From: Myxococcota bacterium
GTDB lineage: Bacteria > Myxococcota_A > SURF-8
Assembly: GCA_965140415.1 (NCBI GenBank)
Contig: OZ223209.1
Coordinates: forward strand, 672,001 to 736,000
Length of the DNA: 64,000 nucleotides
Direction of reading: 5' to 3'
The position numbers and the translations under genes are program-made. Shown piece after piece: positions 11,012-47,521 of the stretch. The notes under the pieces are model-generated. The model ran no database searches. It saw only the letters and a program-made list of their open reading frames with translations, and was not told the origin of the DNA. Every line of letters starts with the position of its first letter. Position 1 is the first letter of the stretch.

Positions 11012-11197
11012 TAGAGTAGGTATTACTCATTTCTGTCCATCGAGTAATCACGATGTGCCATGGTCTCACGGAATGGAAATTCCGGAAGGCCGTGTGTAAC
11101 TACAAGAAGACACACAGCCTTCCACGATCTTCGATCGCGTAAGACTATGGCACACATTATTCAAATTAATGGCTAAAAATGATTGAGAACCGCTATA
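11012..11197 (+). mobile_element. ~185-bp structured dispersed repeat (MITE-like), copy A
   Basis: Near-identical to 34886-35072; TA ends (TAGAGT...AACCGCTATA); nested inverted repeats; no credible ORF. Confidence 0.85.
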
Positions 11198-11217
11198 CAA
11201 GCGCTTCGGGGTCGGAT

Positions 11218-12477
11218 ATGTCCGAAAAGGTTTCCTCAAGCCGCGTGGCGGTGCTGCTGTTTTTCCTGCTGTTGATCGCCGCTCCGGCGCTGTGGCTGGG
11301 TCTGTCTCAGCCGCCCGATCTGGATGAACCGGCCTTTCACCTGCCCGCCATCCAGCAGTACATCGACCAGTTTCCGGCATTCGATCTGCAACACTATCAC
11401 AGCGCCTCCGGTCCCGTGCCTTACATGCTGTGGTCCGTATGGGGGCAGCTTTTCGGCGACAGCCTCCCCGCATTGCGACTGCTTTCCTTGTTGCTTGGTC
11501 TGGGTTGCGTAGTCATTCTATGGCGCGTATTGCGGGACGAACCGACCGGAAGGACCGCGCTGCTACTGGGGTTGATCGTATTGCAACCCTATTTTCTGTA
11601 TCGCTGCTACACCATTTACACCATGATTCCGGCGCTGGTTACGGCCTTACTGGCGCTGGCGTTCTATCTTCGTTTCGAACGGAAGAAGGAATATTCCAGC
11701 CTGCTTGTATTTGCGCTGTTCGCGTCACTGGCCGTATGCAGCCGCCAGGTCTATCTTTCCTATGTGGCCGGAGTGCTGGCGCATTTCACCTTGTTTCACC
11801 TGCTGCCGTCCTGGCGCAAGGACCGTGGCCGCAGTCTAGCCCAGGGCGCGCTACTAATGCTGCCGGTGTTTGCGCTACTGGGACTGTTCTGGTTGTGGGG
11901 TGGCAGCAATCCACCTGATTTTCGCGAAAACGCCGTGCGCGGAATCAATTGGCGCATGCTGGATTTCGTGCCGCTCTTTTTGGGATTCTGGTTTCTGCCG
12001 GTGGCCTGGACGCTTGCCCGGCGCGTGTCGCCGGTGTTATGGCTCCTTGCTGCCGTGGCGTCACTGCATCTGATTTTCTGGCCCTATATCGCCGATCCGG
12101 TGGGCATCGAGGCGGGAAACGTTTCCGGTGTGATCGCCAAGCTGTTTCTGAAAGCGGCCAGCAAGGGACTGCCACTGTGGCTATTGGGACTGGCCCAGGC
12201 GGCGTTGTGGTCCGCCGGAGTCATTGTTTTGGCGGCTCTGTTGTACCGGCTGAAGCATGTCGGCAGTTGGATCGCGTTTGCCCATTTCGGCTTATTGGCC
12301 TTTATCCCGCATACCTGGGAACGCTTTTTCCTGCCGGTGATTCCGATTTTGTGGCTGAGCCTGCGTGACACCGTGAAAGCAAGGCCGATCTTTTTGCTGT
12401 GGCTGGTCTTTCAGGCACTGCTTACCGCCATGTATGTTGCGCAAAAAAGCGGCGTATTCGGCGGTGCATCCTTTTAA
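11218..12477 (+). CDS. Polytopic membrane protein, GT-C fold glycosyltransferase-like
   Basis: DE motif after first TM helix (PDLDEPAFHLPAIQQY), about 10 or more hydrophobic segments; start moved to ATG 11218 outside the repeat. Confidence 0.65.
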   Translation: MSEKVSSSRVAVLLFFLLLIAAPALWLGLSQPPDLDEPAFHLPAIQQYIDQFPAFDLQHYHSASGPVPYMLWSVWGQLFGDSLPALRLLSLLLGLGCVVILWRVLRDEPTGRTALLLGLIVLQPYFLYRCYTIYTMIPALVTALLALAFYLRFERKKEYSSLLVFALFASLAVCSRQVYLSYVAGVLAHFTLFHLLPSWRKDRGRSLAQGALLMLPVFALLGLFWLWGGSNPPDFRENAVRGINWRMLDFVPLFLGFWFLPVAWTLARRVSPVLWLLAAVASLHLIFWPYIADPVGIEAGNVSGVIAKLFLKAASKGLPLWLLGLAQAALWSAGVIVLAALLYRLKHVGSWIAFAHFGLLAFIPHTWERFFLPVIPILWLSLRDTVKARPIFLLWLVFQALLTAMYVAQKSGVFGGASF

Positions 12478-12540
12478 TTGCGTGCAAATTCCGCTACACT
12501 GACGCGTCGAATAGATTATCTGCAACGAGGAGTCGCTTAC

Positions 12541-12795
12541 ATGCCCAAAATCGATATTTACACCACTCAGTTCTGTCCCTACTGCGTTCGAGCCAAGAAA
12601 CTGCTGCAATCCAAGGGTGCAAGCTACAACGAGATTCGCCTGGATCAAGACCCCTCGCGCTCGGAAGAATGCCTTACGCGCAGTAACGGTGGGCGCACCG
12701 TGCCGCAGATCTTCATCGGCGATCTGCATGTGGGCGGTTGCGACGATCTCTATGAATTGGAACGTCAGGGCAAACTGGATACGCTATTGGCTTAA
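12541..12795 (+). CDS. grxC: Glutaredoxin 3
   Basis: CPYC active site, TVPQIFI and GGCDDL motifs; GAGGAG RBS before ATG 12541. Confidence 0.95.
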   Translation: MPKIDIYTTQFCPYCVRAKKLLQSKGASYNEIRLDQDPSRSEECLTRSNGGRTVPQIFIGDLHVGGCDDLYELERQGKLDTLLA

Positions 12796-13973
12796 CTTTT
12801 GATGCGCACCACGCCATCGTCACACAAGGCGGCTATATCTGTTTCGGTATAGCCGCTCTCCATTAGAATTTCGCGAGTATGTTCTCCCAAAAAGGCCGCC
12901 GGGGATAACGATGCGCCGTGCTGCTGCAAGGCTGGAACGGCCCGAGCGCGCGTCAGTTTGGAATCCCCGACTGCGACATCCTCGAACAGCTTGTGCGACT
13001 TGAAATGCGGGTGCTCAGGTACATCTGCAAGGTTCAGCACCGGCTCGCAGCAGGTGTCGACGTCTGCGAGAATCTCCACCCATTCTTTCTGTGTGCGGCT
13101 GCGGAATTGCGCCTGCAATTCTTGATACGCCACGGTATTTTCCGCGATGCGGTCGTATTGATGCTCCATCAGATCCGGTCGCTTGAGCAACTCACACAGC
13201 GTTTGAAAGAATTTGGGTTCCAGTGCCGCCAGCGACATGTAGCGCTGATCTTTCGTTTCGTACAGGTTATAGCAGAGATAGCGCCCCGATAGCAGCGTCT
13301 CGCCGCGTGCGGGCCGCTGGTTTTGCGCCATGACTTCCGCCAGTTGAATTGGCATCAGCGCGATCTGCCCGTCGCACATCGACACATCCAGATGTTCGCC
13401 TTCGCCGGTGCGCATACGACGAAACACCGCCGCCAGGATGGAGAGCACGGCGGCATAGGAACCGGCCAGATCGGACATCTGCGTTCCCGGCATGGCGGGT
13501 GCGCCGTTACGAACGCCGGTCATTTCCACCAGCCCCACCAATGCCTGGAAATTCAAGTCGTGTCCGGCGCGGGTGGCGAATGCGCCCTGCTGGCCGTAAC
13601 CGGTCAGCGAGCAATAGATGATTTCCGGGTTGACTTCGCGAAGATCTTCGTACGAAAGACCGAAGCCGGCCATGGTGCCGGGGCGGAAGCCTTCCAATAC
13701 GACATCATAGTGCTTCACGAGACGCCAGATCACTTCACGGCTTTTGGGATGCTTGAGATCGATCGACAGATTCTTTTTCCCGACGTTCAGGCTTTCGTAC
13801 AGCGCCCCGCGCCCTTCGATCAGTGGTGGCGCCATCCGGGCCGGATCGCCCACGCCCGTGTCTTCGACCTTAATTACTTCCGCTCCCATTTCAGCCAGCA
13901 TCAAACTGGCGAAAGGTCCGGGCAATAACCTGGAAAAATCCAATACGCGCAAGCCTTGTAAATACGCGGTCAT
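12792..13973 (-). CDS. CaiB/BaiF family III CoA transferase (alpha-methylacyl-CoA racemase-like)
   Basis: LRVLDFSRLLPGP, GAEVIKVE, EGFRPG and GHDLNF motifs. Confidence 0.92.
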   Translation of the reverse strand: MTAYLQGLRVLDFSRLLPGPFASLMLAEMGAEVIKVEDTGVGDPARMAPPLIEGRGALYESLNVGKKNLSIDLKHPKSREVIWRLVKHYDVVLEGFRPGTMAGFGLSYEDLREVNPEIIYCSLTGYGQQGAFATRAGHDLNFQALVGLVEMTGVRNGAPAMPGTQMSDLAGSYAAVLSILAAVFRRMRTGEGEHLDVSMCDGQIALMPIQLAEVMAQNQRPARGETLLSGRYLCYNLYETKDQRYMSLAALEPKFFQTLCELLKRPDLMEHQYDRIAENTVAYQELQAQFRSRTQKEWVEILADVDTCCEPVLNLADVPEHPHFKSHKLFEDVAVGDSKLTRARAVPALQQHGASLSPAAFLGEHTREILMESGYTETDIAALCDDGVVRIKS

Positions 13974-14111
13974 CTTCGTTCACTCCGGAAAAGCAGCAGC
14001 TTGTTTTTGTTGTAGGCACTGTAGCACGGAGACGAGTGACCGGCCAAGGATTCTTGTCAAAGGGAGTCGGTATCGGGATTTTTGTTAAACCGAAGGTTCG
14101 GTTCTTGCGGC

Positions 14112-15509
14112 TTATTTGATCTTGTCGCGGGCTTCGGCAAAGCGCACTTTGGCGACTTCGATCCAGGTTCCCTGCGGGTATAGAGTGATATACGCCAGGT
14201 AGGCGCGCAGGGCGTCGCCGTGCTCTTGCAGGTTGTGATGACATTCGCCGAGCAGGAAACGCGCTTTCTCGCTCTCCGGACCGGGATGCTGACTGATGAA
14301 GTTTTTCAGATTGGCAATGGCCCGCAAGGTATAGCCGGAGCGCATCTGCTTATCCACTACGGAATAAAAGCGTCCGATGGCGTCGCGTTGTGGCATTGCC
14401 AGGTTTTCCAGCGTCAACTGCCAACTGGTGCGCTGCACAACCGCTTTTGGGCGAGCTTCGAGAACCGGATCGGTTTCGAGGCGGTTACGTGGGTCATTCG
14501 TTTTCGGCGAAGGCGTATTGAGCTTCATGCGCGGATCGGGACGATTCAGGTTTTCCACCTGCCGCGACTGTTCCGGTGTAAAGCCGAAACGTCGTTCGAA
14601 CAGATCGCGACCGGTCAACCCGGTGCCCGCTTGGATCTGGTTCTGTCCGATTTGCCAGGACGCGTTTTCGCCTTCCCGGATGTCGATCTGCTGTCGATTG
14701 CCGCGCTGAACCTGAACGGCTCCCTCCAGAACGTCTACCGAGCCGTTGCCGTTACGGTCGGAGCGGACGATAAAGCGGGTGCCGATATCGACGAGCCGTG
14801 TTCCCTGTGAGAAAACGAGGAAGGGATCGTTTTCATCATGTAGAACATCCACTGCCACTGCGCCGTGATGCAGGTAGGGATGAACCTTGCCACCGCTTTC
14901 GTGAAAGCGAAGTTCCGAACGTTCACCCAAAGTCAAGGTGGCGCGTTGATTCAGCCGGAAACGCAGTGTGGTTTTGGCATCGGTCTTCAAAATATCTCCG
15001 GCGCGCACCAGTTGGCCGTTCGGATCGATCAAAGCAAGCTTGGCTTGATCGCCGGAATCCAGGTTTTCTATTGAAGCGGTCAGCCCGCTGGAGTCTTCGC
15101 TGCCGGTATCGATTCCGATCAGGTTGTCCAGCGAGGCAATTCCAGGTTGTGTAGCGCTTTGTGGAGTAACGTGGAACAAGCCGGTGGTAATTGCGATCAG
15201 TGCGATGGCCGCCAGAATGGCAGGCGCCCAGATCAAGCCCCAGCGTGCTCTGCTGCGGCGCGATTGGCGCTGCTCCGTTCGGAGGCTTGTAAACAGGCGC
15301 TCTTCGATGCGCTCCCAGTCTGTTTCGCTGGGCTGGTAGAGATCCAGCGCCTGGGGAAGCAAGTGGTCGAGATTACGAAGGGTATCCAATTCCAGTCGAA
15401 GCGCGGCGGAGGTTTGCAACTCCTGCTCAATGCGCAGGGCTTCATCTTTAGGGACTTCCCCATTGATGTAGCGTTGCAATTGTTCGGTTGTGGTGCGGAT
15501 TTCGGTCAT
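14112..15509 (-). CDS. FecR-domain anti-sigma factor with C-terminal TPR-like domain
   Basis: Short N-terminal helical domain, one TM, FecR-like DIGTRFIV...VDVLEGAV, C-terminal ARFLLGECH...YPQG; downstream of ECF sigma. Confidence 0.75.
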   Translation of the reverse strand: MTEIRTTTEQLQRYINGEVPKDEALRIEQELQTSAALRLELDTLRNLDHLLPQALDLYQPSETDWERIEERLFTSLRTEQRQSRRSRARWGLIWAPAILAAIALIAITTGLFHVTPQSATQPGIASLDNLIGIDTGSEDSSGLTASIENLDSGDQAKLALIDPNGQLVRAGDILKTDAKTTLRFRLNQRATLTLGERSELRFHESGGKVHPYLHHGAVAVDVLHDENDPFLVFSQGTRLVDIGTRFIVRSDRNGNGSVDVLEGAVQVQRGNRQQIDIREGENASWQIGQNQIQAGTGLTGRDLFERRFGFTPEQSRQVENLNRPDPRMKLNTPSPKTNDPRNRLETDPVLEARPKAVVQRTSWQLTLENLAMPQRDAIGRFYSVVDKQMRSGYTLRAIANLKNFISQHPGPESEKARFLLGECHHNLQEHGDALRAYLAYITLYPQGTWIEVAKVRFAEARDKIK

Positions 15510-15514
15510 GTTTA

Positions 15515-16120
15515 CTATTCCACTGTTTCTTCCGGTCCGCTGTCTACTCGACTGCTTTCCAAGAGCGCCTTCTGGCGCAGTTTCTTGTAGAAATCCTTTT
15601 TGGCGTAAAACAAGCGCGATTTAACGGTCAGTTTGGAAGCGTTGACGATCTTCGCGATTTCTTCCGGGCTGTGCCCTTCGATTTCATGCAACACGAACAC
15701 GATGCGCTTTTTCGGAGCGATATCCTGGAGTATTTCGTTCACGATTCGAAGCTGCTCGCGATGGTTTACCTGCTTTTCCGGTGGATCTTCCGGATTGATC
15801 AACTGGTTGGCCCGTTCCGAAATATCTACCGGTTCAGGGGTGCCTTTTCGCTTGCGAAGATGCTGCAACGCCACATTGACCACCAGTCGATACATCCAGG
15901 TCGAGAATTTGCTGTCTCCCCGGAAACGTGGCAGGGAGCGGAAAATCTCCATGAAAGCGATTTGCATGATGTCTTCGAGTTCGGAGTCTGGACCGATGGT
16001 ACTGATCAGCACGCGGTGAACGTCCGTTTTGATCAGACGAAAAAGCTGATTATATGCCGTCTGATCGCCGGATTGGCAGCGATGAACAATTTTGTTGAGT
16101 TCATTGATGGATTGATCCAC
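15515..16120 (-). CDS. ECF RNA polymerase sigma factor
   Basis: Region 2 FRGDSKFSTWMYRLVVN; region 4 VFVLHEIEGHSPEEIA...TVKSRL; GTG start after GGGGAG (alternative start 16162). Confidence 0.93.
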   Translation of the reverse strand: MDQSINELNKIVHRCQSGDQTAYNQLFRLIKTDVHRVLISTIGPDSELEDIMQIAFMEIFRSLPRFRGDSKFSTWMYRLVVNVALQHLRKRKGTPEPVDISERANQLINPEDPPEKQVNHREQLRIVNEILQDIAPKKRIVFVLHEIEGHSPEEIAKIVNASKLTVKSRLFYAKKDFYKKLRQKALLESSRVDSGPEETVE

Positions 16121-16380
16121 GCCGTCATTCTCCCCAGTGAACGGTACCAAAAACGATAACACAGCATGGTTCCGAACTCAAGACGCCAAATCGGATTAAC
16201 ATGTAAAAGAACCAACGCCTTCTCCCAATGAGTGACGAATCATTGAGAAAAAGATCAAGAAAAACATTAATTTGTGGAATAAATCATTAAACAGAAGTAA
16301 ACCATCAAGTCTCCTTTTAAACAAAGGCCAGGAAAGCGAATTATTTCACGTTGTTATAATTGAGAATGATTGTGGATGAA

Positions 16381-17334
16381 TTAGAAGACTTTTATCGGGA
16401 ATCCTCGTTTTGCAGCGAAGGTGAACACCTTCAGCGCGATATCGCACTCCACTCCGATTTTTTTTGCGGTGTCCAGATTCAACGCGATTTCCATTCCTTC
16501 CGGAGGAGTGACCGGAATCAGAGTTGGGGAAACGCGATCTTTCAAAATACGTTTGGCAATGGTGGCAGCCTGTTTGCCGATCAGGGTGTAGTCCGGGGAA
16601 AGCGAAACCAGTGCGCCTACTTTCACGAACTTGGAAGTTAATGAAAAGAGTGGGATTTTCATGCGCACGGCGAAATCGACCAACGAAGCATGCGCGGATT
16701 GATTCAGAATCAGGTTATCCGGCACCACCCACAATGCATCCACTTTCCCTCGCATTCGCGCCAGGGCTTCGGCAACCTGGTTGCGGCTGTCGATTTCTTC
16801 AGCAACCAGTTGCAAGCCGATCGCCGCAGCAACTTGCCTGGATTCCTCGATGATTCTTCCGGTGTGTTGCTTGTTATAAATGACACCGACCGATTGCACG
16901 TTCTGAGCCATCAGTTTCAGAACTTTCAGTTGGGTCTTGATGGGTAACTGCATGGAAATACCGGTGATATTGTCAGCCTTCAAGCTTTTCAGGCTACTGT
17001 CGGGCACCAGGCAGAATACGATTGGAACGTCTTTCAATGCTTGTTTGGCAAGTGACGCAGCCAGGGGACCGACTGCCAGCACCAGTTCGGGCGGTGTTGC
17101 AGCCAGCAACTCCATGACCCGTTTCCCTTTATTGACATTGCGACTTAGATTGTACTCGACAACCGTATCGTTGGAGTTCACCGTAAACGAGGTAATGACG
17201 CTGTTGTAGCTATCCAGTTCGGCGCTTTTCACCACCGCGATTCTAGCTGCGAACGCAGTTGAGATACCGCCGCTGACCAATGCGATCCAAGCGGCACAGA
17301 GTATCCAAGTCAATCGTACGATCACGTGCATCAT
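16381..17334 (-). CDS. ABC_sub_bind-type periplasmic substrate-binding protein
   Basis: Signal peptide (AFA); PIVFCLV, VGVIYN, DALWVVPD, GALVSL..DY..IGKQAA and LNLDTAKKIG motifs. Confidence 0.8.
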   Translation of the reverse strand: MMHVIVRLTWILCAAWIALVSGGISTAFAARIAVVKSAELDSYNSVITSFTVNSNDTVVEYNLSRNVNKGKRVMELLAATPPELVLAVGPLAASLAKQALKDVPIVFCLVPDSSLKSLKADNITGISMQLPIKTQLKVLKLMAQNVQSVGVIYNKQHTGRIIEESRQVAAAIGLQLVAEEIDSRNQVAEALARMRGKVDALWVVPDNLILNQSAHASLVDFAVRMKIPLFSLTSKFVKVGALVSLSPDYTLIGKQAATIAKRILKDRVSPTLIPVTPPEGMEIALNLDTAKKIGVECDIALKVFTFAAKRGFPIKVF

Positions 17335-17731
17335 TCGTTTTCGAGTTCCCGGTTATGTTGGAAGATCCTAGCAATGAAAATACTATCACAACATATTTGC
17401 GAAACGCAACTTTGCGTCGCAGGTTTTTTATCGGCGAAAGATTTGAAAACATTAATGATATCGGCAATATACTCAATGTCTTCTTGTCGGGTGCGCCGCG
17501 AGGTAACCGTGATCGAAGGCGTTTTGAACATTGAAATGTGAGTGTGCCACTTTTTAAAAAATGATGATTTAGTACGAAAAACACTTTTCTTTTTAAATTC
17601 TTGTGGTATCATCCCGGCCCTTTCGAGATCCGGGCGGCTGTTCGCTGCGACTAGTGGATCTCACTGTTGTTTTTTTGCTTGCACATGGCCCGTCACGCAG
17701 CCCGTCGATTGGTCATACATGGAGAAAAGAG

Positions 17732-19807: not shown

Positions 19808-19850
19808 TCGGTTGTAAGGATTAGATATATTTGCTCTGTTGGCAAATTTG

Positions 19851-19882
19851 AGAGGATGGGATTTCCCATCCTCTTTCTCTTT
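19851..19882 (+). terminator. Rho-independent terminator between convergent fusA and htpX
   Basis: AGAGGATGGGA-TT-TCCCATCCTCT stem followed by a T-rich tract. Confidence 0.65.
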
Positions 19883-19934
19883 GCGCGCTACGAGTTTGTT
19901 GGGGGGTGTACTGGGGTGCAAGTGGTTTTTGAAT

Positions 19935-21020: not shown

Positions 21021-21039
21021 GATGATTCAGATCGCGAAA

Positions 21040-21600: not shown

Positions 21601-21632
21601 TCCCCTTTATAAATCCGTGTAAAAAGATGGTG

Positions 21633-22540: not shown

Positions 22541-22567
22541 CCAGGTAATGAAAGAAGGAGGTGTCCC

Positions 22568-33959: not shown

Positions 33960-34142
33960 TATAGCGGGTGTAACTCATTTCTGTTTATCACGCAATCGTG
34001 ATGTGGCATGGTCTCACGGAGTGGAAATTCCGGGAGGCCGTGTGTAACCTTAAACCCCACACAGCCTCCCCATCTTCGATGGTGAGACTATGCCACACGT
34101 TATTGAAATCATTGGCTAAGTATGATTAATTGGACCCCTAAA
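33960..34142 (+). mobile_element. ~185-bp structured dispersed repeat, copy B (most diverged full copy)
   Basis: Starts TATAGCGGG; colinear with copy A, with compensatory substitutions in the stems. Confidence 0.8.
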
Positions 34143-34177: not shown

Positions 34178-34888
34178 ATGATTCCACTGCGAGACAACAT
34201 CCCCAGTCAGCGTTTCCCCTTTGTGAACTACTCGCTGATCGGAATCAATATTTTACTATACGTCTACATGTACTGGATCGTGGGGGATGCACAGGCGGAA
34301 GCATTGATGTTCGACTACGGTGTGGTGCCGCGACGGGTGATCTCCTGGGTACTGGGGGCGGATGTCGGTTGGGATATTTCGTTGTTGCCGTTGGTAAGCT
34401 ACATGTTCATCCACGGTGGTTTCCTGCATGTCGCGGGTAACTGTTTATATCTGTACATCTTCGGGGATAACGTTGAAGATTATTTCGGCCATATCGGGTA
34501 TGTGTTCTTTTATCTGCTGGCGGGTATCGGTTCTGCGTTTATTCATCTTGCCATTAACTGGGACAGCACCATGCCGACTGTCGGTGCCAGCGGGGCCATT
34601 GCCGGAATCATGGGAGCGTATTTTATCCTCTACCCGCATGCTAAAGTCGTCACCATCGTGCCGATTCTGATTTTCATTCAGATTATGGAGATCCCGGCAG
34701 TGATTTTCCTTGGATTCTGGGTGTTTCTACAGTTCATTTCGCTGGGCGGGCAGGGCGTCGCATGGTGGGCGCACATCGGAGGCTTTTTCGTCGGCATTTT
34801 ACTGCTGCAACTCTACAACCGTTTCTTTCGCTTCAAGCCGCCCCGACCCCCTTCGGGTGGACCGCGCAAGGTGATTCATATCAATTAG
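34178..34888 (+). CDS. Rhomboid family intramembrane serine protease
   Basis: MFIHGGFLHVAGN, FGDNVED, VGASGAIAG (catalytic Ser) and AWWAHIGGF (catalytic His). Confidence 0.95.
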   Translation: MIPLRDNIPSQRFPFVNYSLIGINILLYVYMYWIVGDAQAEALMFDYGVVPRRVISWVLGADVGWDISLLPLVSYMFIHGGFLHVAGNCLYLYIFGDNVEDYFGHIGYVFFYLLAGIGSAFIHLAINWDSTMPTVGASGAIAGIMGAYFILYPHAKVVTIVPILIFIQIMEIPAVIFLGFWVFLQFISLGGQGVAWWAHIGGFFVGILLLQLYNRFFRFKPPRPPSGGPRKVIHIN

Positions 34889-35072
34889 AGTTAGGTAATA
34901 CTCATTTCTGTCCATCGAGAACTCACGATGTGCCATGGTCTCACGGAATGGAAATTCCGGGAGGCCGTGTGTAACCACAAGAAATAACACAGCCTTCCAC
35001 GATCTTCGATCGCGTAAGACTATGGCACACATTCTTAAAATTAGTGGCTAAAAATGATTAAGAACCGCTCTA
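34886..35072 (+). mobile_element. ~185-bp structured dispersed repeat, copy C
   Basis: TAGAG...CTCTA termini; begins at the rhomboid TAG stop; near-identical to copy A. Confidence 0.85.
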
Positions 35073-35079
35073 GACTCTG

Positions 35080-36478: not shown

Positions 36479-38491
36479 ATGATTTTCGGGTGCCCGAATT
36501 GTAATGCAGACTGCCCCATACCGGATGACAAAATTCGCAACCGCATACTGAAGGTCCGCTGTCGGCACTGCCATCACATTTTCTATGTCAAAGATCCCGA
36601 ACTCGATAAAAGAGTTACAGCCAGCGTGCAAGCGCCGCCGCCGCCGGACGATGACGATGTGTGGTTCTATGCGGCAGGAGATCAATCCGCCGGTCCCGTT
36701 TCGGTTGGCTCGATGCGCATTCTTATCGAAAGCGCGCAGATTCTTTCTTCCACACTTGTCTGGCGTGAAGGTATGGAAGCCTGGACGCCGCTAGCCGATG
36801 TCCCGGAACTAACCGCCATTCTACAGGCGATTGCCTCGCCGCCACCTCCCGCCGATGCCCCGGTCGCTCCCGGTTTGGAAGATATGGAACCCTCGGAAAA
36901 GGCGGTGGAAATCCAGGAAGAAGTCGATCCACTGGCCTTGATGGAACAGGAAGCGGACAGCGACATTTCCGTAGATCTGGATCAGGAAACATCCTCGGAT
37001 TCCGATGCGGAAGATGAAGAAATCGAGCTGGAAGCGGACGAGATCGAGTTCGAAGAGGATGCGGGCGGCGAAATCGACGATACCGTAAAGGCGCTGATGG
37101 AAGAAGAAGAGCGCCTGCAACAGGAACGCGAGAAGAAACGAGAGCAGTTCGCCAAGCGTAAAGAGGAAGAAGAGAAGGCGAGCAAGGCCGAAGAAGAAGC
37201 CAAGCGCAAAGAGGAAGAAGAGAAAGCTCGCAAGGCCGAAGAAGAGGCCAAGCGCAAAGCGGAAGAAGAGAAAGCTCGTAAGGCCGAAGAAGAGGCCAAG
37301 CACAAAGCGGAAGAAGAGAAAGCTCGCAAGGCCGAAGAAGAAGCCAAGCGCAAAGCGGAAGAAGAGAAAACCCGCGAGGCCGAAGAAGAAGCCAAGCGCA
37401 AAGAGGAAGAAGAGAAAGCCCGCGAGGTCGAAGAAGAGGCCAAGCGCAAGGCGGAAGAAGAGAAAGCCCGCAAGGCCGAAAAAAAGGCCAAGCGCAAGGC
37501 TGAAGAGGAAGAAAAGCGCCTGGATGCAGAACGGCGCAAGCTGGATGAAGAACGCAAAGCGCTGGAAGCGGAAAAGAAGCGCCTGGAAGAAGAACGTAAA
37601 GCCGCGAAAGCCGAGAAAAAGACAGAAGAAGCCGGCGGAGTTTTCGTTGCGGCAGGGAAATCGGTTGAAACCGCCGTTGAAGAGGCAAAGCTGGCCGAAC
37701 GCCGCCGCCTGGAAGAAGAGAAAAAGGCGGGAATGCCAATGGGCAAACTCGCTGTGGCCGTTTTGGTTCTGATCGGACTCGGAATCGGGTTCCTGCTGAT
37801 ATTCGAGAGCAACAAGGTAGAGCAGCCGCAGCCGTCCCCGGGCGGTCATGCGTTGCTTGAAGAGACGACGACGGATGCCAACCTGTTCATCCCGGAACAG
37901 AATCTGCCTGCGGAAGAGGGTGAAACACCTCCACCGGCGGAAGAAGTCGCCGATGAGACGGAACCCAAGTCCGAAAAGCAGGATCGCAAAGTGGCGGAGC
38001 AGATGAAGGAACTGGATTCCGAAATCCACGCCATGCGCAATGCGTTGGGAAAAAAGAAGGCCTCGCCCGCAGCGAAGTCGAAAAACGGCAAAAATGCCGA
38101 AACCAAGGCCGTGGCAGTGCCGTCTACGCCATCCGGCAGTTCCATGGCGATGCCGCCCGTTCCAAGCGCTAATGACGCTTTCCCCGAGGCCCTGCTACCC
38201 TCGACACTGAGCCAGAGCCAGATCAGCAGTGTAGTCAACCGGAATCTGGCGCGCATCAAATTCTGCTACGATTCGCAACTGCGTCGCAACCCGAATTTGA
38301 CGGGCAAAGTCATCGTGAATTTCACCGTGGAAGGTTCCGGCAAGGTCAGTTCGGTTGCCGTCAAGTCACGACGATTCCGTGGATCCTACCTGGACACTTG
38401 TGTGACCGGTGCGATCCGAAGCTGGCGTTTCCCGCGTTTTTCCGGCGATCCGGTCAGCGTGGACTATCCGTTTATATTCAGCGCTTTTTAA
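36479..38491 (+). CDS. AgmX/GltJ-like protein: zinc ribbon, GYF_2, acidic and E/K/R helical linker, TM, TonB-C-like domain
   Basis: CPNC...CRHC; WFYA..QSAGPV...LVWREGMEAW; single TM; IKFCYD...NPNLTGKV...WRFP...VDYPFIF. Confidence 0.8.
   Translation: MIFGCPNCNADCPIPDDKIRNRILKVRCRHCHHIFYVKDPELDKRVTASVQAPPPPDDDDVWFYAAGDQSAGPVSVGSMRILIESAQILSSTLVWREGMEAWTPLADVPELTAILQAIASPPPPADAPVAPGLEDMEPSEKAVEIQEEVDPLALMEQEADSDISVDLDQETSSDSDAEDEEIELEADEIEFEEDAGGEIDDTVKALMEEEERLQQEREKKREQFAKRKEEEEKASKAEEEAKRKEEEEKARKAEEEAKRKAEEEKARKAEEEAKHKAEEEKARKAEEEAKRKAEEEKTREAEEEAKRKEEEEKAREVEEEAKRKAEEEKARKAEKKAKRKAEEEEKRLDAERRKLDEERKALEAEKKRLEEERKAAKAEKKTEEAGGVFVAAGKSVETAVEEAKLAERRRLEEEKKAGMPMGKLAVAVLVLIGLGIGFLLIFESNKVEQPQPSPGGHALLEETTTDANLFIPEQNLPAEEGETPPPAEEVADETEPKSEKQDRKVAEQMKELDSEIHAMRNALGKKKASPAAKSKNGKNAETKAVAVPSTPSGSSMAMPPVPSANDAFPEALLPSTLSQSQISSVVNRNLARIKFCYDSQLRRNPNLTGKVIVNFTVEGSGKVSSVAVKSRRFRGSYLDTCVTGAIRSWRFPRFSGDPVSVDYPFIFSAF
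37151..37513 (+). repeat. In-frame 48-bp tandem repeat, about 7.5 units (AKRKAEEEKARKAEEE)
   Basis: GCCAAGC recurs every 48 bp from 37151. Confidence 0.9.
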
Positions 38492-38616
38492 AATTCGAAT
38501 CGACGTTTTTGAGCCTATTTCATCGGGACGACCATGTATGATCGAGCGGTGCGAAGCAACGACGCCATACACAAGCAATCGGACCTCAGGCAATTGTTCC
38601 GGTAGAAACAGGTTGT

Positions 38617-38710
38617 TATAGTAACCCGTAATCATTTCTGGTCACGGATTCGAAGGTTTTGTGCCATAGTCTCACGCGAAAGAAGATCGTGGAAGGCTGT
38701 GTGTCTTCAA
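38617..38710 (-). mobile_element. Structured dispersed repeat, copy D (3' half only, inverted)
   Basis: TATAGT..TAATCATTTCTGGTCAC...TGTGCCATAGTCTCACGCG...GATCGTGGAAGGCTGTGTGTCTT matches the reverse complement of the right half of copy A. Confidence 0.8.
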
Positions 38711-38777
38711 TAGTAGCGGCGAGGCGTGAGCCCGCCGAAAAAAAACTATAATGACCGCAACCCAGGGAGGAAAGACC

Positions 38778-39587
38778 ATGAGCGAAATCCTTTCCGAGCA
38801 AGTATTGGAACGAATCGAAGATCTGTGCAGACAACTGGGCGAAAGCCTGGGTATCGATCCGGACAGCGTTCCCGCCTACGAGCTTCGCCACAAAGACTTT
38901 TTTCCCGAAGTTTCCGTCGATGCCATGCAGCGCATCCTGTCCGGCGATGGAGCCGCACTGACCCAGACCATCGACCATACCCTGCTTAAAGCCGAAGCTC
39001 AGAAAGAGCAGGTCAACCTGCTATGTGCTGAAGCCATCGAGCATCAATTCCGCGCAGTCTGCGTCAACGGCGGCTATATCGCCAGAGCCAGTTCCTTGCT
39101 GGTTAATACCGATGTCCAACTGGCGGCGGTGGTCGGTTTCCCGCTGGGACAGATGACGAGCGAGGCCAAGGCGTTCGAAAGCAAGCTGGCGGTGGAAGAA
39201 GGTGCCAGTGAAATCGATATGGTGATCAATATTGGTTGGTTGAAGGACGGTCATTTTCGCGAGGTGTTTGACGACATCAGCCAGGTGGTGCGCGCCGCAG
39301 CGGTGCCGGTGAAGGTGATTATCGAGACGGCGCTTTTAACCGAAGACGAAAAAATCATCGCCTGCCTGCTCAGTCACTTCGCCGGGGCGGCATTCGTAAA
39401 AACGTCCACCGGCTTTTCCACCGGCGGGGCGACGGTCGAAGATGTCGCGTTGATGCGCGCCGTGGTTGGAGAGAATCTCGGAGTCAAGGCCAGCGGCGGT
39501 ATCAAAACCTATAAAGACGCCCTGGCGATGCTGAAAGCCGGAGCTAACCGCATCGGTACTTCCTCCGGCATCCAGATCATCGGCTAA
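38778..39587 (+). CDS. deoC: Deoxyribose-phosphate aldolase with N-terminal extension
   Basis: IDHTLLK, VGFPLG, EIDMVINIG, KVIIET, FVKTSTGF, VKASGGI and RIGTS motifs. Confidence 0.95.
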   Translation: MSEILSEQVLERIEDLCRQLGESLGIDPDSVPAYELRHKDFFPEVSVDAMQRILSGDGAALTQTIDHTLLKAEAQKEQVNLLCAEAIEHQFRAVCVNGGYIARASSLLVNTDVQLAAVVGFPLGQMTSEAKAFESKLAVEEGASEIDMVINIGWLKDGHFREVFDDISQVVRAAAVPVKVIIETALLTEDEKIIACLLSHFAGAAFVKTSTGFSTGGATVEDVALMRAVVGENLGVKASGGIKTYKDALAMLKAGANRIGTSSGIQIIG

Positions 39588-39596
39588 GCGCCGAAG

Positions 39597-41138: not shown

Positions 41139-41953
41139 CGGATTTTCAACACATCCAGGCATCTGCGGATTTTCTGAAAAACAAGCTGGGCCAGGTGCCC
41201 GACCGGGCCATCATTCTGGGAAGCGGCCTGGGAAATCTGGTGGATCGCTTCAGCGACACGCAGGTGATCCCGTATGGCGACATTCCCGGTTTTCCCAAGC
41301 CGACGGTCGCCGGTCATCGTGGAGAAATGGTCGTCGGTACGCTCGATGGCGTGCGGGTGCTGGGCATGGCGGGACGCTTCCACTATTACGAAGGACATCC
41401 CCTGGATGTCATCGCCTTCCCCGCACGGGTGTTGGCGGTAGCGGGTGTAAAAAATCTGATGATCACCAATGCGGCAGGAGGGGTCAATACGACCTTTTCC
41501 CCCGGCGATCTGATGCTTATCACGGATCACCTGAACCTGACCGGACGCAATCCGCTGATGGGCGGTAACCTGGACGAACTGGGCGTCCGTTTCCCGGATA
41601 TGAGCTACACCTACCCGCGCGATTTTCAACAGCTTGCCAGAGACGTGGCCAGGCGTGAGGGATTGGATTTGAAGGAAGGTGTTTACGCCTGGATGAGCGG
41701 TCCGAGTTACGAAACCCCGGCGGAAATTAGAATGCTGCGCACTATTGGCGCCGATGCGGTGGGTATGTCCACCGTGCCGGAAGCGATTGCAGCGCGTCAT
41801 GCCGGGATGAAAATCGTCGGCGTATCGCTGATCACCAACATGGCGGCGGGTGTATTGGATCAACCTCTGACTCACGAAGAGGTTACGGAAACCGCCGATC
41901 AAGCCGCCAAACGTTTCGAAAAACTGGCCATCGGTATTCTGACCGGGATGTAA
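41135..41953 (+). CDS. punA: Purine-nucleoside phosphorylase (trimeric, PunA/XapA type)
   Basis: ILGSGLG, GRFHYYEG, TNAAGG, GPSYETPAE, AVGMSTVPE and TNMAAG motifs. Confidence 0.93.
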   Translation: MTDFQHIQASADFLKNKLGQVPDRAIILGSGLGNLVDRFSDTQVIPYGDIPGFPKPTVAGHRGEMVVGTLDGVRVLGMAGRFHYYEGHPLDVIAFPARVLAVAGVKNLMITNAAGGVNTTFSPGDLMLITDHLNLTGRNPLMGGNLDELGVRFPDMSYTYPRDFQQLARDVARREGLDLKEGVYAWMSGPSYETPAEIRMLRTIGADAVGMSTVPEAIAARHAGMKIVGVSLITNMAAGVLDQPLTHEEVTETADQAAKRFEKLAIGILTGM

Positions 41954-42063
41954 ACGGATAAAACGCCGCTCTGCGCCACTTGCCCTTGCAAGCACAAGTG
42001 TTTGATAATATAATTGAATTCGTCTACCGAGATCGGCACGGACTCGCCTTCTGATCCTCGTCG

Positions 42064-42092
42064 TTGACAGATCCTACCAGAACCGTTACATT
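42064..42092 (+). promoter_or_regulatory. Sigma70-like promoter of the S8 protease gene
   Basis: TTGACA, 17-bp spacer, TACATT. Confidence 0.55.
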
Positions 42093-42147
42093 ACTGTGTT
42101 TTGTTTTCGGCTCTGGCCAACCGTTTTAATAAATGGAGAATGTTCGT

Positions 42148-45100
42148 ATGAAGTTGTTCAAGTCCCGCCTGTACTCTCTCCTTGCGCTCGTTCTGTTGCT
42201 TTCCCTGCTGCTTTCATCGAACGTGTTTGCAGAATTCGCTTCCGAGGACTGGAACCCGGAACTGTTGCGACCGGATGCGGCGGAGATGCCGTCTTTCGAA
42301 AGGCTGCCAGTACCGGAGGTTGCCGGTTATGATGAGTTGCTGAAACAGCTCAGCGTTCAGACCCTGGATCGCAATCGCATCTTGTTGAAACAGCGCGCCT
42401 TCGATCCGTTGCAGGAAAATGCCCCCCATTTTCTAAGCAATCATCTTTCAGCGCAAACGCTGCACCCTGAAGTACTACGGCGCATTGAAAAGTTGTCCCC
42501 TCATCATGTTCGGTTAGTGCAATTAAAGGAAACCGTGACTTCCGATACGGCGGACGAATTGCGCGATGCGGGCTTGAATGTCATTGCTTACATTCCGAAC
42601 AATGCGTTTTTGGTCTCCGGTAACGATGCTGCCCTGCCTGCAATGCTGAAAAATCAGATCCGTTGGAGCGGTCCCATCGATCCCGGCTTGAAAATAGACG
42701 AGACTCTTCAACAGGATCTCTCTACCGGCATCGAAGATGCGGAAGCCTTGATTCGGGTTTCCGGTTATCGTGGTGAAACCATCGACGGGTGGGAGGAACT
42801 GGCACTCACCTTGGGTGCCGGGGAAGTTCTGGCTGCGGAGGAAAAACCCTTTCCGTCGCTGCTGTTGCGTGTGGAACGCGAGCGCATGGCGGAAGTGACG
42901 GTCGGCATGGCACAACTCAGCGGTGTCGAGCGGGTGCAGCGCTTTGAATTGCCGGTCACGAAAAACCACGGGTCCATCTGGCTGTTGCAGTCCGGCGATC
43001 CCGATACCCAACTGACTTCGATCTTCGATGCAGGCATCAATGGTTGGGGGCAGGTTTATGCCGCCGCCGATTCCGGTCTGGATACCGATGGCTGCCAGTT
43101 CCGCTACAATGAAGAAGAGGGCAGCCAGACTTTCGCCCAGGATCTGCGACCGCCGAGCACCAGTATTTCCAATCCCGATGACAAGGTGATGGCCTATTAC
43201 GTGCTACCCGGCTCCGATGCCTACGACGAAACCACCGGCGGCTATCACGGTACGATGACGACCGGTTGCGCAGTGGGCGACAATTACCAGAACCTGGCAA
43301 CGCCGTATAGCCCCGGTATCGACTATTCCGACGGCATGGCTCCCGGCGCTCGCGTGGTGTTTCAGGATGTCGGCGACATGCGCGGCAATCTATGGGGGTT
43401 GGCGCTCTCCACGGAATTCCAGATCAGCCTTCAGGCTTACGATTCGGGCGCGCGCGTACATAACGACAGTTACGGCAGCGAGCGGGTTTACAATGGTTAT
43501 GACATCAGCTCGCAGATGCTCGACCTGTTCCTCTGGCAATATCCCGACTACAACATCTTCTTTGCAGCGGGAAATTCCGGCCCGGATGAAAGCACCTTGG
43601 GCGGAGGCGGTGGCACGGCCAAAAACACGGTGTCGGTGGGAGCTTCCACACCGGCCTGGTTCCAGGATGGGCGGGACATCGTCTCCTTCAGCAGTCGTGG
43701 ACCAACCGAAGATGGTCGCTTGAAGCCGGATATCATGGCTCCGGGCGTTATTATTTCTGCAACCGAGTCGGGAAGCAAAGCCATTCCCGGCGTTACCAAT
43801 GTTTACGACGAACCGGCACGCGAATCGCAAACCGTGCCGCCCAACAACAACTGCAAGACCGCCATGACCAGCGGAACCAGTTTCTCTTCTCCCACGGCGG
43901 CGGGTATGGGTTTGTTGGTTCGCCAGTATTTCACGGACGGCTTCTATCCTTCCGGCGTGCGTGTGGCGGAAGACAGCATGATTCCTTCCAATGCGTTGGT
44001 AAAAGCGGTGATGATCAACTCCGGGCGCAATCTCGATGGTTCGGTGGTGGTTTTTTACGGCCACAGCAGTCGCCCGTTAAGCGGAATCGAACCGGTTCCC
44101 AGCACGAATCAGGGATGGGGCCGTGTTACTCTGGAAGATGCCTTGTATTTTAAGGGCGACCGCCGGGATCTCGTTGTATTGGCGGACATTCCCAACGGTA
44201 GCGATGACTGTCCCCGGCAAGGCGATGAAGTCCGGTATGAAATCGATGTCAAACGGGATATGCCTCTGAAAATTTCGCTTGTGTGGGCCGATCCGCCAGC
44301 TTCGCCTTATGCCGGAGTGAGCCTGGTCAATAACCTGGATCTGGAAGTGATTTCGCCTTCCGGCGTTCGCTATTTCGGAAATATCAATTACTCCAACGGC
44401 TATTCTACTCCGGCGCAGATCGGTGACACTTTCGATACATTGAACAATTTCGAGCAGGTCATTATCGAGAATCCTTCCAACGGCGTCTATACGGTTGTCG
44501 TTCATGCTGCCAGCCTGCCGGGTAACGGAGAAAACGATCCATTTGATGCAACGTTACAGGGCTATGCCTTGATCGTCACCGGCAATCGTGGTGACATTTC
44601 GGATATTGCCGGGCCGCGAATCGGTATTCGTGACATTCAGTTGTCCGGTGGTTGCGATAACGACGACGCACTGGATCTGAATGAAAGAGCAGCATTTTTA
44701 GTCAGCGTGTCCAATTCCGGCGACGGCGATGCCCAGGGATTGTATGGCACCCTGACGCTTAATGAGGACTTGACCGAGATCGACTCCAGCCTGATCGCCA
44801 TTAGTGGCGAGAGCCGTTTTGAAATCGGCAATATCGACAATAAAACCCAGCGAACCTTTACAACCGCAAATATTCGCTTAAGCGCCGAGGCCGTAGATGC
44901 TTGTAACAAGTACGCCGCGTTCGATCTGAAAATATTCGATGCCAATGACGAGTTGCTGCAATCCTCGACTTTCCGCGTTCCGTTAGCACGCAACATCACG
45001 GTTCTTGAAACGATTGAATGTCAGGATGATCTGTGCAACCCGCCTCCCGAGATCACGGAAATCACGCCCAATTCCTTGTTTGCCGGTATTCAGGGGGTTT

Positions 45101-45498
45101 CCCTGGAGGTTCGTGGGGAGCGCATCGCCGACGACATGACGGTCGAGTTCGACCCGGATGTGTTGAATTGCGAATCGCTGGATTTCCGCTCCACACGGGA
45201 ATTGAGGCTGCGCAACTGTACGGTGCCGGAAGACACCGAACCGGGTGACGTGGCGCTGTTACTGATCGACTCGGATGGTTTCCCGACTCGCTACGAGAAT
45301 ATGTTGAAAATTACGGAAGCGCCGGAACCCGATCCGGTTACGGATGGCGATATTGAAGCGGAAATCATCACCGGAGCGGATACGGATGAAACCGATGATG
45401 GTGGCGGTTGTCGCAACGCGGGTTCGTCTTCCTCTTCAATCGTTCTGTTGCTTGCCGTAACGCTATTATTCTACCGACGTTCCAGACGTTTGGTGTAA
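42148..45498 (+). CDS. Secreted S8 subtilase (KP-43-like) with C-terminal MYXO-CTERM-like anchor
   Basis: Signal peptide; triad motifs ADSGLD, HGT and GTSFSSP; FAAGNSG; DGRLKPD; QGWGRV; tail GGGC-spacer-TM-RRSRR. Confidence 0.92.
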   Translation: MKLFKSRLYSLLALVLLLSLLLSSNVFAEFASEDWNPELLRPDAAEMPSFERLPVPEVAGYDELLKQLSVQTLDRNRILLKQRAFDPLQENAPHFLSNHLSAQTLHPEVLRRIEKLSPHHVRLVQLKETVTSDTADELRDAGLNVIAYIPNNAFLVSGNDAALPAMLKNQIRWSGPIDPGLKIDETLQQDLSTGIEDAEALIRVSGYRGETIDGWEELALTLGAGEVLAAEEKPFPSLLLRVERERMAEVTVGMAQLSGVERVQRFELPVTKNHGSIWLLQSGDPDTQLTSIFDAGINGWGQVYAAADSGLDTDGCQFRYNEEEGSQTFAQDLRPPSTSISNPDDKVMAYYVLPGSDAYDETTGGYHGTMTTGCAVGDNYQNLATPYSPGIDYSDGMAPGARVVFQDVGDMRGNLWGLALSTEFQISLQAYDSGARVHNDSYGSERVYNGYDISSQMLDLFLWQYPDYNIFFAAGNSGPDESTLGGGGGTAKNTVSVGASTPAWFQDGRDIVSFSSRGPTEDGRLKPDIMAPGVIISATESGSKAIPGVTNVYDEPARESQTVPPNNNCKTAMTSGTSFSSPTAAGMGLLVRQYFTDGFYPSGVRVAEDSMIPSNALVKAVMINSGRNLDGSVVVFYGHSSRPLSGIEPVPSTNQGWGRVTLEDALYFKGDRRDLVVLADIPNGSDDCPRQGDEVRYEIDVKRDMPLKISLVWADPPASPYAGVSLVNNLDLEVISPSGVRYFGNINYSNGYSTPAQIGDTFDTLNNFEQVIIENPSNGVYTVVVHAASLPGNGENDPFDATLQGYALIVTGNRGDISDIAGPRIGIRDIQLSGGCDNDDALDLNERAAFLVSVSNSGDGDAQGLYGTLTLNEDLTEIDSSLIAISGESRFEIGNIDNKTQRTFTTANIRLSAEAVDACNKYAAFDLKIFDANDELLQSSTFRVPLARNITVLETIECQDDLCNPPPEITEITPNSLFAGIQGVSLEVRGERIADDMTVEFDPDVLNCESLDFRSTRELRLRNCTVPEDTEPGDVALLLIDSDGFPTRYENMLKITEAPEPDPVTDGDIEAEIITGADTDETDDGGGCRNAGSSSSSIVLLLAVTLLFYRRSRRLV

Positions 45499-45525
45499 GC
45501 GCATTTTAGGATAGGTTGTAACAAC

Positions 45526-46110
45526 ATGAATCTGCGCCTGTCGGAAAAGAAAATTTACAACGTGATTCTGATCTTTCTGATCGGCTATCTCGCCTATTCC
45601 TGGTTTTTCGTCGATCGCTTCGGCAATGCAACACTGGAACTCGGCCCGCCGAAATCGACGCAAGCCGCGCCGTATCCCTTGTATCCCGCTCCAGCGCTCA
45701 AACTGCCACAACCCAGTGGTGGAGAAATTTCCTTGAGCCAGTTTAAAGGGCAACCGGTGGTGGTCGTTTTCTGGGCGCCCTGGTGTCCTCCCTGTCGTCG
45801 CGAGTTACCTTGGTTGGAAGAGCTTGCCAAGAAACTTGGGAGCACAGGCAAGGTGATTTCCGTGGCGACCGGCTATCGTGACCGGGGCGAAGTGACGGAG
45901 CTGTTCGATTCCAAGCAGCCCCTATCCAAGATTCTGCTGCTCGATGAGGAAGCGGATGCTTCCGCAGACTGGAAGGTTGGCAGCTTCCCAACTGCCTTCA
46001 TCGTCGATCCTTACGGCATCGTACGTTATCGATTAGCGGGGGCGCGTCATTGGGATGGACCGGACGCCTGGGCCGATATCGAAGCCGTTCGACAGGTAGC
46101 CGCACCGTAA
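45526..46110 (+). CDS. TlpA/ResA-family membrane-anchored thiol-disulfide oxidoreductase
   Basis: N-terminal TM, FWAPWCPPCRRELP and FPTAFIVD motifs. Confidence 0.9.
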   Translation: MNLRLSEKKIYNVILIFLIGYLAYSWFFVDRFGNATLELGPPKSTQAAPYPLYPAPALKLPQPSGGEISLSQFKGQPVVVVFWAPWCPPCRRELPWLEELAKKLGSTGKVISVATGYRDRGEVTELFDSKQPLSKILLLDEEADASADWKVGSFPTAFIVDPYGIVRYRLAGARHWDGPDAWADIEAVRQVAAP

Positions 46111-46227
46111 AGCCGGTTTTATCGTTGACTTCAACCCATTTTGCCTCATTTCCGAGTTTACTTTTTGTGGACAAATCCCTCGTTTGCAGTATGCTGAGTG
46201 AGAATGAAAATCACGAGGAAATTGTCC

Positions 46228-47160
46228 ATGCCGGGTATTGGAGTCATCAATAATCCGAAAGCCAGACAGAATCTCAAAAACCCCGATCGCATCCGGTTGC
46301 TGGCCTATATTCTTGGAGACAAAGGCGATAGCAAAGCCACGCAGAATTTCGACGAACTGGAAGACAGTTTAAAGGAGTTCAAGCGGCGTGAAATCGATAT
46401 CTTGGCTGTCAACGGCGGCGACGGAAGCAATCACGTCACCTTGACGAAACTGATCGAAGTCTACGGCGATCAGCCCCTGCCGAAAATCGCATTGTTACGC
46501 GGGGGAACGCTTAATACCATTTCCTGCGCCTTTGGAATCAAGGGCAAACCCGCGTATCTGTTGCACAACCTGGCAGACAAGTATGGCCACGGCGAAGAAT
46601 TCACCACCATGGATGCGGACTTGATGAACTGTAATGGAAAGTACAGCTTTCTATTCGGAAATGGTGTAGTTGCCAATTTCATGCATACCTACTACAGTTC
46701 CGGTACGCCATCGCCCACTCAGGGCGTGATTACGCTGGTAAAAGGGATTGCCTCTGCGATTACGGGAACCCAACTCGCCAAGGGTTGGTTCAAACCGGTA
46801 AAGGCAAAAGTAACTGTCGATGGCGAAGTGTTGCCGTTTGAACAGTTTTCATCGATCATGGCAGGCACGATGACGGATATCGGCGTGGGGTTTAAACCCT
46901 GGTACCGCGCTTTCGATGAACCACATACCTTTCATATTTTGTTTCTTACATGCAAACCGCTGGAATTACTCCCTGAAGTTCCTCGTTTCTATTTTGCCCG
47001 ACCGATTCATCCTAAAAATGGGAGTGAAACACTGGCCAAGCATGTTCTGATCGAAGCCGAAGAAGCGTTCCATTTCACGCAAGATGGCGACTTGTACACT
47101 TGCGATGATGGGCGCATGGATATTTCCATCGGACCGCGTGTGACCATGATCATCGAATAA
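46228..47160 (+). CDS. Diacylglycerol/lipid kinase family protein
   Basis: INNP, NGGDGS, GGTLN and QDGD motifs. Confidence 0.85.
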   Translation: MPGIGVINNPKARQNLKNPDRIRLLAYILGDKGDSKATQNFDELEDSLKEFKRREIDILAVNGGDGSNHVTLTKLIEVYGDQPLPKIALLRGGTLNTISCAFGIKGKPAYLLHNLADKYGHGEEFTTMDADLMNCNGKYSFLFGNGVVANFMHTYYSSGTPSPTQGVITLVKGIASAITGTQLAKGWFKPVKAKVTVDGEVLPFEQFSSIMAGTMTDIGVGFKPWYRAFDEPHTFHILFLTCKPLELLPEVPRFYFARPIHPKNGSETLAKHVLIEAEEAFHFTQDGDLYTCDDGRMDISIGPRVTMIIE

Positions 47161-47339
47161 TCCCCGCTGTAGATATTCAGCATACAGTTAGCTTGATTGG
47201 CTTATCTCCTATCCCGTTGAAAACTCGACATATTTGCAACCAAAGACTGTCTATTTTGAGTAGACAGCTCAAGCCATTGACAAATGACAAAGCCTACATT
47301 CTAGCAGGGCTCCTGTCCTGCTCCTTGAGATTTCAGACA

Positions 47340-47521
47340 TGTACCGGTTCTTAATCATTTCTAGCCACAGATTCTGTTAGTTTGTGCCATAGTCTTACGC
47401 GATCGAAGATCGTGGAAGGCTGTGTATCTTCAACAAGTTACACCCGGCCTCCCGGAACTTTCATTCCGTGAGACCATGGCACATCCCGATTACTCGATGG
47501 GCAGAAATGAATGCTATCTTA
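47340..47521 (-). mobile_element. ~185-bp structured dispersed repeat, copy E (inverted)
   Basis: Reverse complement is colinear with copy A over its full length. Confidence 0.85.

Follow-up and report, generated by a model that had tools for sequence, protein, structure and literature searches.

Five copies of a repeat of about 186 bp lie in a window of 64,000 nt from the genome of a Myxococcota bacterium (GTDB lineage Bacteria; Myxococcota_A; SURF-8), namely positions 672,001 to 736,000 of contig OZ223209.1 in GenBank assembly GCA_965140415.1 (G000:C1:672001-736000). By its sequence, the element is an IS630-type miniature inverted-repeat transposable element (MITE) with a REPIN inside, i.e. 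with an inverted pair of repetitive extragenic palindromic (REP) hairpins, and both kinds of component are already known. Most probably, this non-autonomous unit was spread in trans by an IS630 transposase; we infer the enzyme and the order of assembly from what was observed, which is the identity of the ends with those of IS630 elements, TA at both ends, one pair of filled and empty sites and a REP unit flanking a gene for a REP-associated tyrosine transposase (RAYT). An original prediction, made from the letters of the window, had described a MITE-like family and pointed to IS630-type transposases as the likely mobilisers of such elements. The ends do match IS630 elements of a related genome, but the element is not a plain MITE left by deletion within an insertion sequence (IS), and the MITE reading is incomplete in that over half of the element is recognisably a REP doublet from a RAYT (HUH tyrosine transposase) system. 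The source genome, G000, is a single contig of 5.98 Mb (93.7% complete) and was compared with the related genomes G001-G009, among which G004 belongs to the same family as G000 and to another genus.

Repeat family and structure of the element

A profile search found the family at 87 places in G000, 51 of them full-length and 36 truncated at one or both sides, and a few low-scoring places among the 87 may be distant relatives; the high copy number that had been proposed was thereby borne out. Mean identity is 81%, the closest pairs show 2-4 differences, the median nearest neighbour shows 17 (54 near-full copies), and no two copies of the family are identical. Copy-versus-copy matches across the genome reach E values down to about 1e-87, so that chance is excluded. 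The element is non-coding, with 58 of 59 cores outside open reading frames (ORFs; this and the gene-context counts below use a crude ORF set), and its imperfect terminal inverted repeats (TIRs) of about 28 bp are as originally described. Its RNA fold is strong on both strands (z = -7.0 and -7.8 against shuffles). Copy A, a member of the youngest subgroup with its nearest copy 4 positions different, has the following parts:

11012..11197, + strand: copy A, 186 bp, TA at both ends, 92% identical to the genome consensus
11012..11039, + strand: left IS630-type end, TA plus a terminal repeat of about 26 bp
11055..11094, + strand: left REP unit, GTGC-footed, its basal stem of 9 bp (including G.T pairs) followed by one mismatch, the upper stem and a GGAA loop
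11095..11112, no strand: spacer between the REP units, variable, with two main sequence types in the family
11113..11153, - strand: right REP unit, inverted, with foot GTGC, basal stem as in the left unit and GAA loop
11170..11197, - strand: right IS630-type end, 27/28 nt identical to the right end of an IS630 element of G004 (IS630a, below)

Both junctions of this copy are covered by short-read contigs in two of three public runs from one study, which may include the source sample, and copy A is therefore not an artefact of assembly.

IS630-type ends and probable movement at TA

Two IS630 elements of G004 have termini that match those of the repeat. IS630a (1097 bp, with a split ORF; two identical copies and one partial) has a C-terminal ORF that scores 160 bits against NF033545, the NCBIfam IS630 profile (cut-off 100), and many copies of the repeat agree with its right end over 27-29 nt at their own right end, one of them at 28/28. 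IS630b is present in 7 copies with 76% protein identity to IS630a, and one of its ends agrees with the element's left end at 20/22 nt, as in copy A, where the first 22 nt agree at 20 positions. Several end types occur in the family, TATAGCGGTT, TAGAGTAGGT, TATAGGCACT and TAGACCCTCT, each resembling one of the four IS630a/IS630b ends. An end pattern occurred in 3 of 10 genomes, with 62 matches in G000, 5 in G004 (all of them IS630a ends) and 1 in G003, and with 0 in controls. The search for an IS630 element with matching TIRs, proposed in the original prediction, thus succeeded in same-family G004, where the ends start with TATAGCGGTT, and gave none in G000, where a weight-matrix scan found no long element between the ends. 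Neither plasmid nor viral collections held a match, the viral contigs being without an end, a REP unit or IS630a.

To judge from copies and insertion sites, the 186-bp unit moved whole. On each side, 34/59 copies carry TA precisely where the end is predicted, against a background of 3-4%; a pyrimidine precedes the left TA in 25/32 copies, and target duplications longer than TA (3-5 bp) were found in 0/32. The copy at G000:5936015 interrupts a GTAG-REP doublet, and the rejoined form with a single TA matches 14 intact sites. The reverse nesting also occurs, at G000:4448549, where a 150-bp IS630-ended GTAG-REP element sits with duplicated TA within a copy of the 186-bp family. This inserted element represents a second family (G000:C1:4448549-4448698 and about 30 related places) of about 150 bp, with IS630-type ends round a GTAG-REP doublet, which is TA-bounded and often fused with other REP modules.

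Several other candidates for the cognate transposase were dropped. PF01609 proteins give 22 matches in G000, and the multi-copy elements there have other ends; PF01797 gives 10, of which eight are IS200-type and two RAYT-like. An IS200 gene adjoining the copy at G000:241809 has its own ends and was treated as a neighbour. Targeting of stop codons was likewise set aside, 8/59 copies against 7% per TA site being no clear enrichment. Two further arrangements were noted: in G004:C2 near 756700 (L120), a gap of about 30 bp separates IS630b from a REP unit, and 12 nt of the IS630b end are repeated there, and at G000:C1:5926512 (- strand) a fold-back of the left end, about 70 bp long and without core, is present as a single copy.

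REP core and RAYT genes

The central 99 bp of the element is an inverted pair of REP-type hairpins, of 40 nt and 41 nt with an 18-nt spacer. In each unit, a GTG(C/G) foot adjoins a stem of 9 bp that includes G.T pairs; beyond one mismatch come an upper stem of 4-6 bp and a GAA-type loop of 3-4 nt. The loops are mostly GAA/GGA triloops, which are typical of DNA hairpins, and the footed strand is the better DNA fold in 129/136 units. Upper stems vary among genomes and remain paired; they covary, with a mean of 3.6 pairs against 1.4 in swapped controls (92 distinct variants). Across the phylum, 7/301 genomes carry the unit pattern, and these belong to two families; controls gave 0 matches, and the narrow lineage range originally suggested is supported. 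In relatives (matches in 4/41 genomes), similarity is confined to about positions 44-146, apart from a decayed copy that matches further and, in G004, the ends of IS630.

The association of this unit with RAYT genes was found in relatives. Inverted units flank a RAYT gene at G004:C2:794992-795619 (NF047646, 89 bits, cut-off 80) and, in G002, a RAYT remnant with its middle deleted; RAYTs of the same clade have related hairpins, with GTG(G/C)CA feet, on their flanks (8 loci, 6 genomes), and G002 and G007 are examples of genomes with an intact gene of this clade. No intact RAYT cognate to the element's REP unit was found in G000, where other REP families adjoin both RAYT-like genes:

G000:C1:4582357-4582956: RAYT-like gene with an internal TAG and GTGG-footed REPs on its flanks
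G000:C1:4046704-4047213: intact RAYT-like gene with GTAG REPs on its flanks

At G001:C2:349719-350783 (L051), identical REP mosaics spaced 1028 bp apart bracket a GTAG-flanked RAYT gene in the manner of direct repeats.

The REP halves are 97% identical to the consensus, against 64-89% for ends and arms, and rare variants occupy 55/3432 cells in the core (1.6%) against 49/1785 in arms and spacer (2.7%; p = 0.006, 40/54 copies), a modest effect that subfamily structure can bias. In four truncated copies (G000:C1:322416, 850699, 3877652 and 4512963), a GTGG-footed REP follows CACGG without a gap, the join lying at one or the other of two sites in the element; a RAYT target rule may be at work.

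The same core in other shells

Among the relatives, the same hairpin pair occurs both bare and within other ends; the counts given here are for the loci fetched, not whole-genome totals. Doublets are bare in G001 (3/3 loci), G002 (5/5) and G003 (2/2). In G004, G006 and G009, 10/10 short elements with TAGRYRGTGTCGTCAC-type ends (236-240 bp) enclose the core, 9 of them with TA at both ends, and such ends also bound multi-copy IS5-family elements of about 870 bp in these three genomes (NF033580, 145 bits), which we take from size, split ORF and TA target to be of the IS427 subgroup. G009 has a third shell, a 177-bp form with a 4-5 bp duplication in 5/6 full copies and two 166-bp variants without duplication; the transposase behind this shell was not found, and IS1182 was rejected, matching ends being present in 0/5 loci checked. 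The type of duplication in the relatives, TA or 4-5 bp, tracks the shell. One decayed copy of the G000 type is held by G004 (L002).

Since ends and duplications differ between shells, separate captures of the core by different ends would be the simplest reading; end-swapping on an existing element is a possible alternative. In a tree of 38 cores, 3/35 branches are well supported and the G000 type is split from a 91-bp type, and the tree is too weak to put the captures in order. An element of about 85 bp with IS427-type ends and no REP core, at G009:C3 near 36600 (L041), may represent either a precursor still empty of core or a product of deletion.

Proposed origin and competing explanations

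The following course of events would account for the family. The GTGC-footed REP family would have arisen as hairpins flanking a RAYT gene, and short doublets of it would then have spread within two related families; two IS630 ends would have come to bracket one such doublet in the lineage of G000. An IS630 DDE transposase acting in trans would have bound the ends of about 27 bp and inserted the 186-bp unit at TA, duplicating the TA, and the cognate IS630 may later have been lost from G000. The copies would have been kept mostly downstream of genes, a long hairpin at the 3' end of a transcript being tolerated or useful. With its cognate IS630 apparently gone from G000 and each copy different from every other, the family has probably ceased to move. 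RAYT-type enzymes may still handle the REP halves, and this would account for the many mosaics with other REP families.

The positions of the copies relative to genes bear on several of the explanations. Copies lie between convergent genes in 28/59 cases, against 214/1189 of gaps, and between divergent genes in 2/59, against 414/1189; orientation relative to the flanking genes is mixed (17 versus 12). Along the genome, 31/87 and 23/87 copies lie in the first and last megabase and few near 2.5-3 Mb, a clustering that surrounds the GC-skew minimum near 417 kb.

A number of results weigh against an IS630-driven spread of a REP-cored unit. No PF13358 (DDE_3) match, i.e. no IS630 catalytic domain, was found in G000, and NF033545 matches there cover profile positions 1-130 only, none above the cut-off, so that the mobiliser is deduced from another genus. 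Both ends carry TA, to within 1 nt, in only 32/59 copies, and rejoined flanks were matched elsewhere for only 2/32, one of them weakly (E 0.02). The original prediction had proposed a search for empty single-TA sites in related strains; the filled site for which empty counterparts were found is that of the copy at G000:5936015, with 14 intact homologues; for copy A, neither an empty allele nor a skipping joint was present in contigs of the three runs, and a metagenome scan for close strains returned only distant proteins (best 51% identity) with the REP unit in 0/80 loci. The blocks of the element are weakly linked (right arm versus left end, Mantel r 0.05) and, at distances of 21-120 nt, some 60% of site pairs are incompatible, which simple clonal transposition does not predict; this suggests recombination among copies, homoplasy also being possible. 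On the REP side, the foot is conserved but mostly GTGC (35/40 left and 32/40 right units, with GTGG in 2/40 and 8/40) instead of the canonical GTAG/GTGG, and the core is for that reason a REP variant rather than a canonical GTAG REP. The G004 RAYT is apparently truncated C-terminally, after the catalytic motif, and the G000 RAYT of the same clade has an internal stop and a different REP family on its flanks.

Whether the core has a function is a separate matter, and a reading compatible with an IS630 mechanism, to which we give serious weight though somewhat short of an even chance, takes the REP doublet as inert stuffer, captured only for the spacing of roughly 100 bp that the two ends need, its REP ancestry being real but without present function. 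Tc1/IS630 synapsis would need a minimum spacing between ends, and REP doublets are such abundant intergenic DNA in G000 that IS ends would bracket some by chance; the G004 copy of IS630b about 30 bp from a REP unit fits this, as does the coreless fold-back, which exists once and shows no amplification. The lower number of rare variants in the core than in arms and spacer points the other way, modestly and with a possible subfamily bias, as do the occurrence of one REP family in three different shells and the fact that both IS630-ended families of G000 have REP cores.

It is unlikely that a RAYT did most of the copying, the REPIN moving as single-stranded DNA and carrying flanking remnants of IS630 ends, even though the higher conservation of the REP halves, their fewer rare variants, the shuffling of blocks among copies, the four CACGG joins to GTGG-footed REPs and the bias toward gene 3' ends would all suit such a route. 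The limits of the element are sharp and TA-bounded exactly at IS630 termini, two nested insertions carry a TA duplication, duplication type follows the shell in relatives, and G000 has yielded no intact cognate RAYT.

We regard as very improbable that the mobiliser was, instead of a lost IS630, a 926-bp element of the IS5 family that resides in G000 in 3 TA-flanked copies. This element shares about 10/17 of its first nt with the element's right end by inspection, and the pyrimidine before the left TA would suit it; the IS630 ends match better, over 27-29 nt, and its own copies are 99.9% identical, yet no element copies are. Scarcely credible is a structured non-coding or cis-regulatory RNA family, for which the strong fold, covarying stems and gene 3' positions could be cited, given transposon ends with target duplications, mixed orientation to flanking genes, mostly GAA/GGA triloops and no Rfam match. 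Integron attC sites were dropped by inspection (dispersed copies, both orientations, TA ends).

Relation to known systems

An IS630 shell of this kind has known counterparts, among them ERIC, which we take to be linked to IS630. As described in the sources cited, Correia/NEMIS of Neisseria, RUP of Streptococcus pneumoniae and ERIC (PMC2817692, PMC3733652) resemble the element in a length of 70-300 bp, TIRs of 15-30 bp, TA ends, intergenic non-coding position, strong folding and ends matching an IS630 element. They are set apart, by description, in that the interior here is a REP doublet of an unrelated HUH system and not IS-derived, and in that several end types here echo different IS630 ends.

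The core resembles REPINs or bacterial interspersed mosaic elements (BIMEs) with their RAYT (TnpA-REP), according to Quentin et al. 2018 (PMC6006769) and Corneloup et al. 2021 (PMC8266576), in its two inverted hairpins with a short spacer, in the 4-nt foot on the 5' side of a long hairpin with a bulge, in having its units beside a RAYT gene and in its mosaics with other REP families. It differs in having mostly GTGC instead of GT[AG]G as foot and in lying within DDE-transposon ends with target duplication. The long-hairpin descriptor of Quentin et al. (PMC6006769), with a basal stem of 7-20 nt, a bulge, an upper stem and a loop of 2-5 nt, is fitted by the core apart from the foot. In Di Nocera et al. 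2013 (PMC3733652), TIRtrons/TIRYTs are likewise RAYT-like genes flanked by non-GTAG palindromic repeats with dimers elsewhere; the 'TIRs' there are the RAYT-flanking repeats, whereas here a second, outer pair consists of true IS630 ends. IS5-family ends of the IS427 type, 16 bp long, enclose the same doublet in the 236-240 bp elements of G004, G006 and G009, and are not the shell around the window copies. No description of a REP doublet inside DDE ends was found in the literature searched; subscription papers and supplements outside that search (for example the REP tables of PMC6006769 and PMC3733652) could already hold the REP family.

The occurrence of one hairpin pair bare or in different transposon ends suggests that repeats of this sort are able to pass from one mobilising enzyme to another. 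As a balanced possibility, REP doublets would switch mobiliser in the full sense: the GTGC-footed family would have been enclosed at least three separate times by different DDE ends, with amplification of the whole unit after each enclosure. The enclosing ends are those of IS630 in G000, of IS5/IS427 type in G004, G006 and G009 and of the type with 4-5 bp duplication in G009, and the known RAYT copies of the family are broken. Since the core is more conserved than the ends, there may be two routes of movement, or a host-selected function of the hairpins that outlives each transposase. Such switching, if true, would blur the REPIN-versus-MITE division proposed by Bertels and Rainey (bioRxiv 10.1101/2021.07.10.451892), where the two are distinct classes with differing duplication rates and persistence, REPINs being argued to be slow, long-lived and host-beneficial and MITEs fast, short-lived parasites; the element here is both. 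It would also offer REP families a route to persist without a RAYT, and so bears on the open question of how REP repeats spread and why they persist. With one hairpin family bare and in three shells within one order, and with matching autonomous IS for two shells, the question whether the core helps or rides becomes testable. For annotators, the warning is that TA-ended 'MITEs' may be composites with an interior of separate history.

Copies in the window and neighbouring features

All five copies claimed in the original prediction are present. Its coordinates hold for A and C; B ends at 34140 instead of 34142, D reaches about 47525 and E reaches 38712. In addition to copy A, the window contains:

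33960..34140, + strand: copy B, 181 bp, 81% to consensus, GTGG foot, small core deletions, TA at both ends
34886..35072, + strand: copy C, 187 bp, 91% to consensus, between convergent genes
38617..38712, - strand: copy E, right half only, with spacer, right REP unit (38661-38701) and right end with TA
about 38713..38737, + strand: REP hairpin of GTAG type from a second family, taking the place of the missing left half of copy E, to which it is fused
about 47340..47525, - strand: copy D, 90% to consensus, full core, decayed termini, between convergent ORFs

TA ends, as proposed, are present on both sides of A and B, and D has lost both. The family had also been called intergenic, which is generally right, with two qualifications: ORF 34178-34888 takes its stop codon from copy C, namely the first TAG there, and ORF 11179-12477, if read at its greatest length, would begin within the right end of copy A; its true start may be an ATG further on, at 11218. 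That the family was unrecognised agrees with Rfam, for which the window has 0 matches at gathering score (the best, 14.6 bits with E 0.14, lies mostly outside the element). A promoter scan around copies B and C gave 0 sites, and no terminator-like sites were found inside the elements.

ORF 34178-34888, which sits between copies B and C, has no NCBIfam match and presumably carries rhomboid-like motifs. The protein encoded at 36479-38491 of the window resembles GltJ/AgmX; it has a zinc finger at its N-terminus, and its coding sequence includes a tandem repeat of 24/48 nt at 37055-37579. Elsewhere in the genome, at G000:C1:813088-813240, lies a member of another family of about 150 bp, found in 7 regions, an end of which resembles that of a resident 1287-bp IS5-type element.

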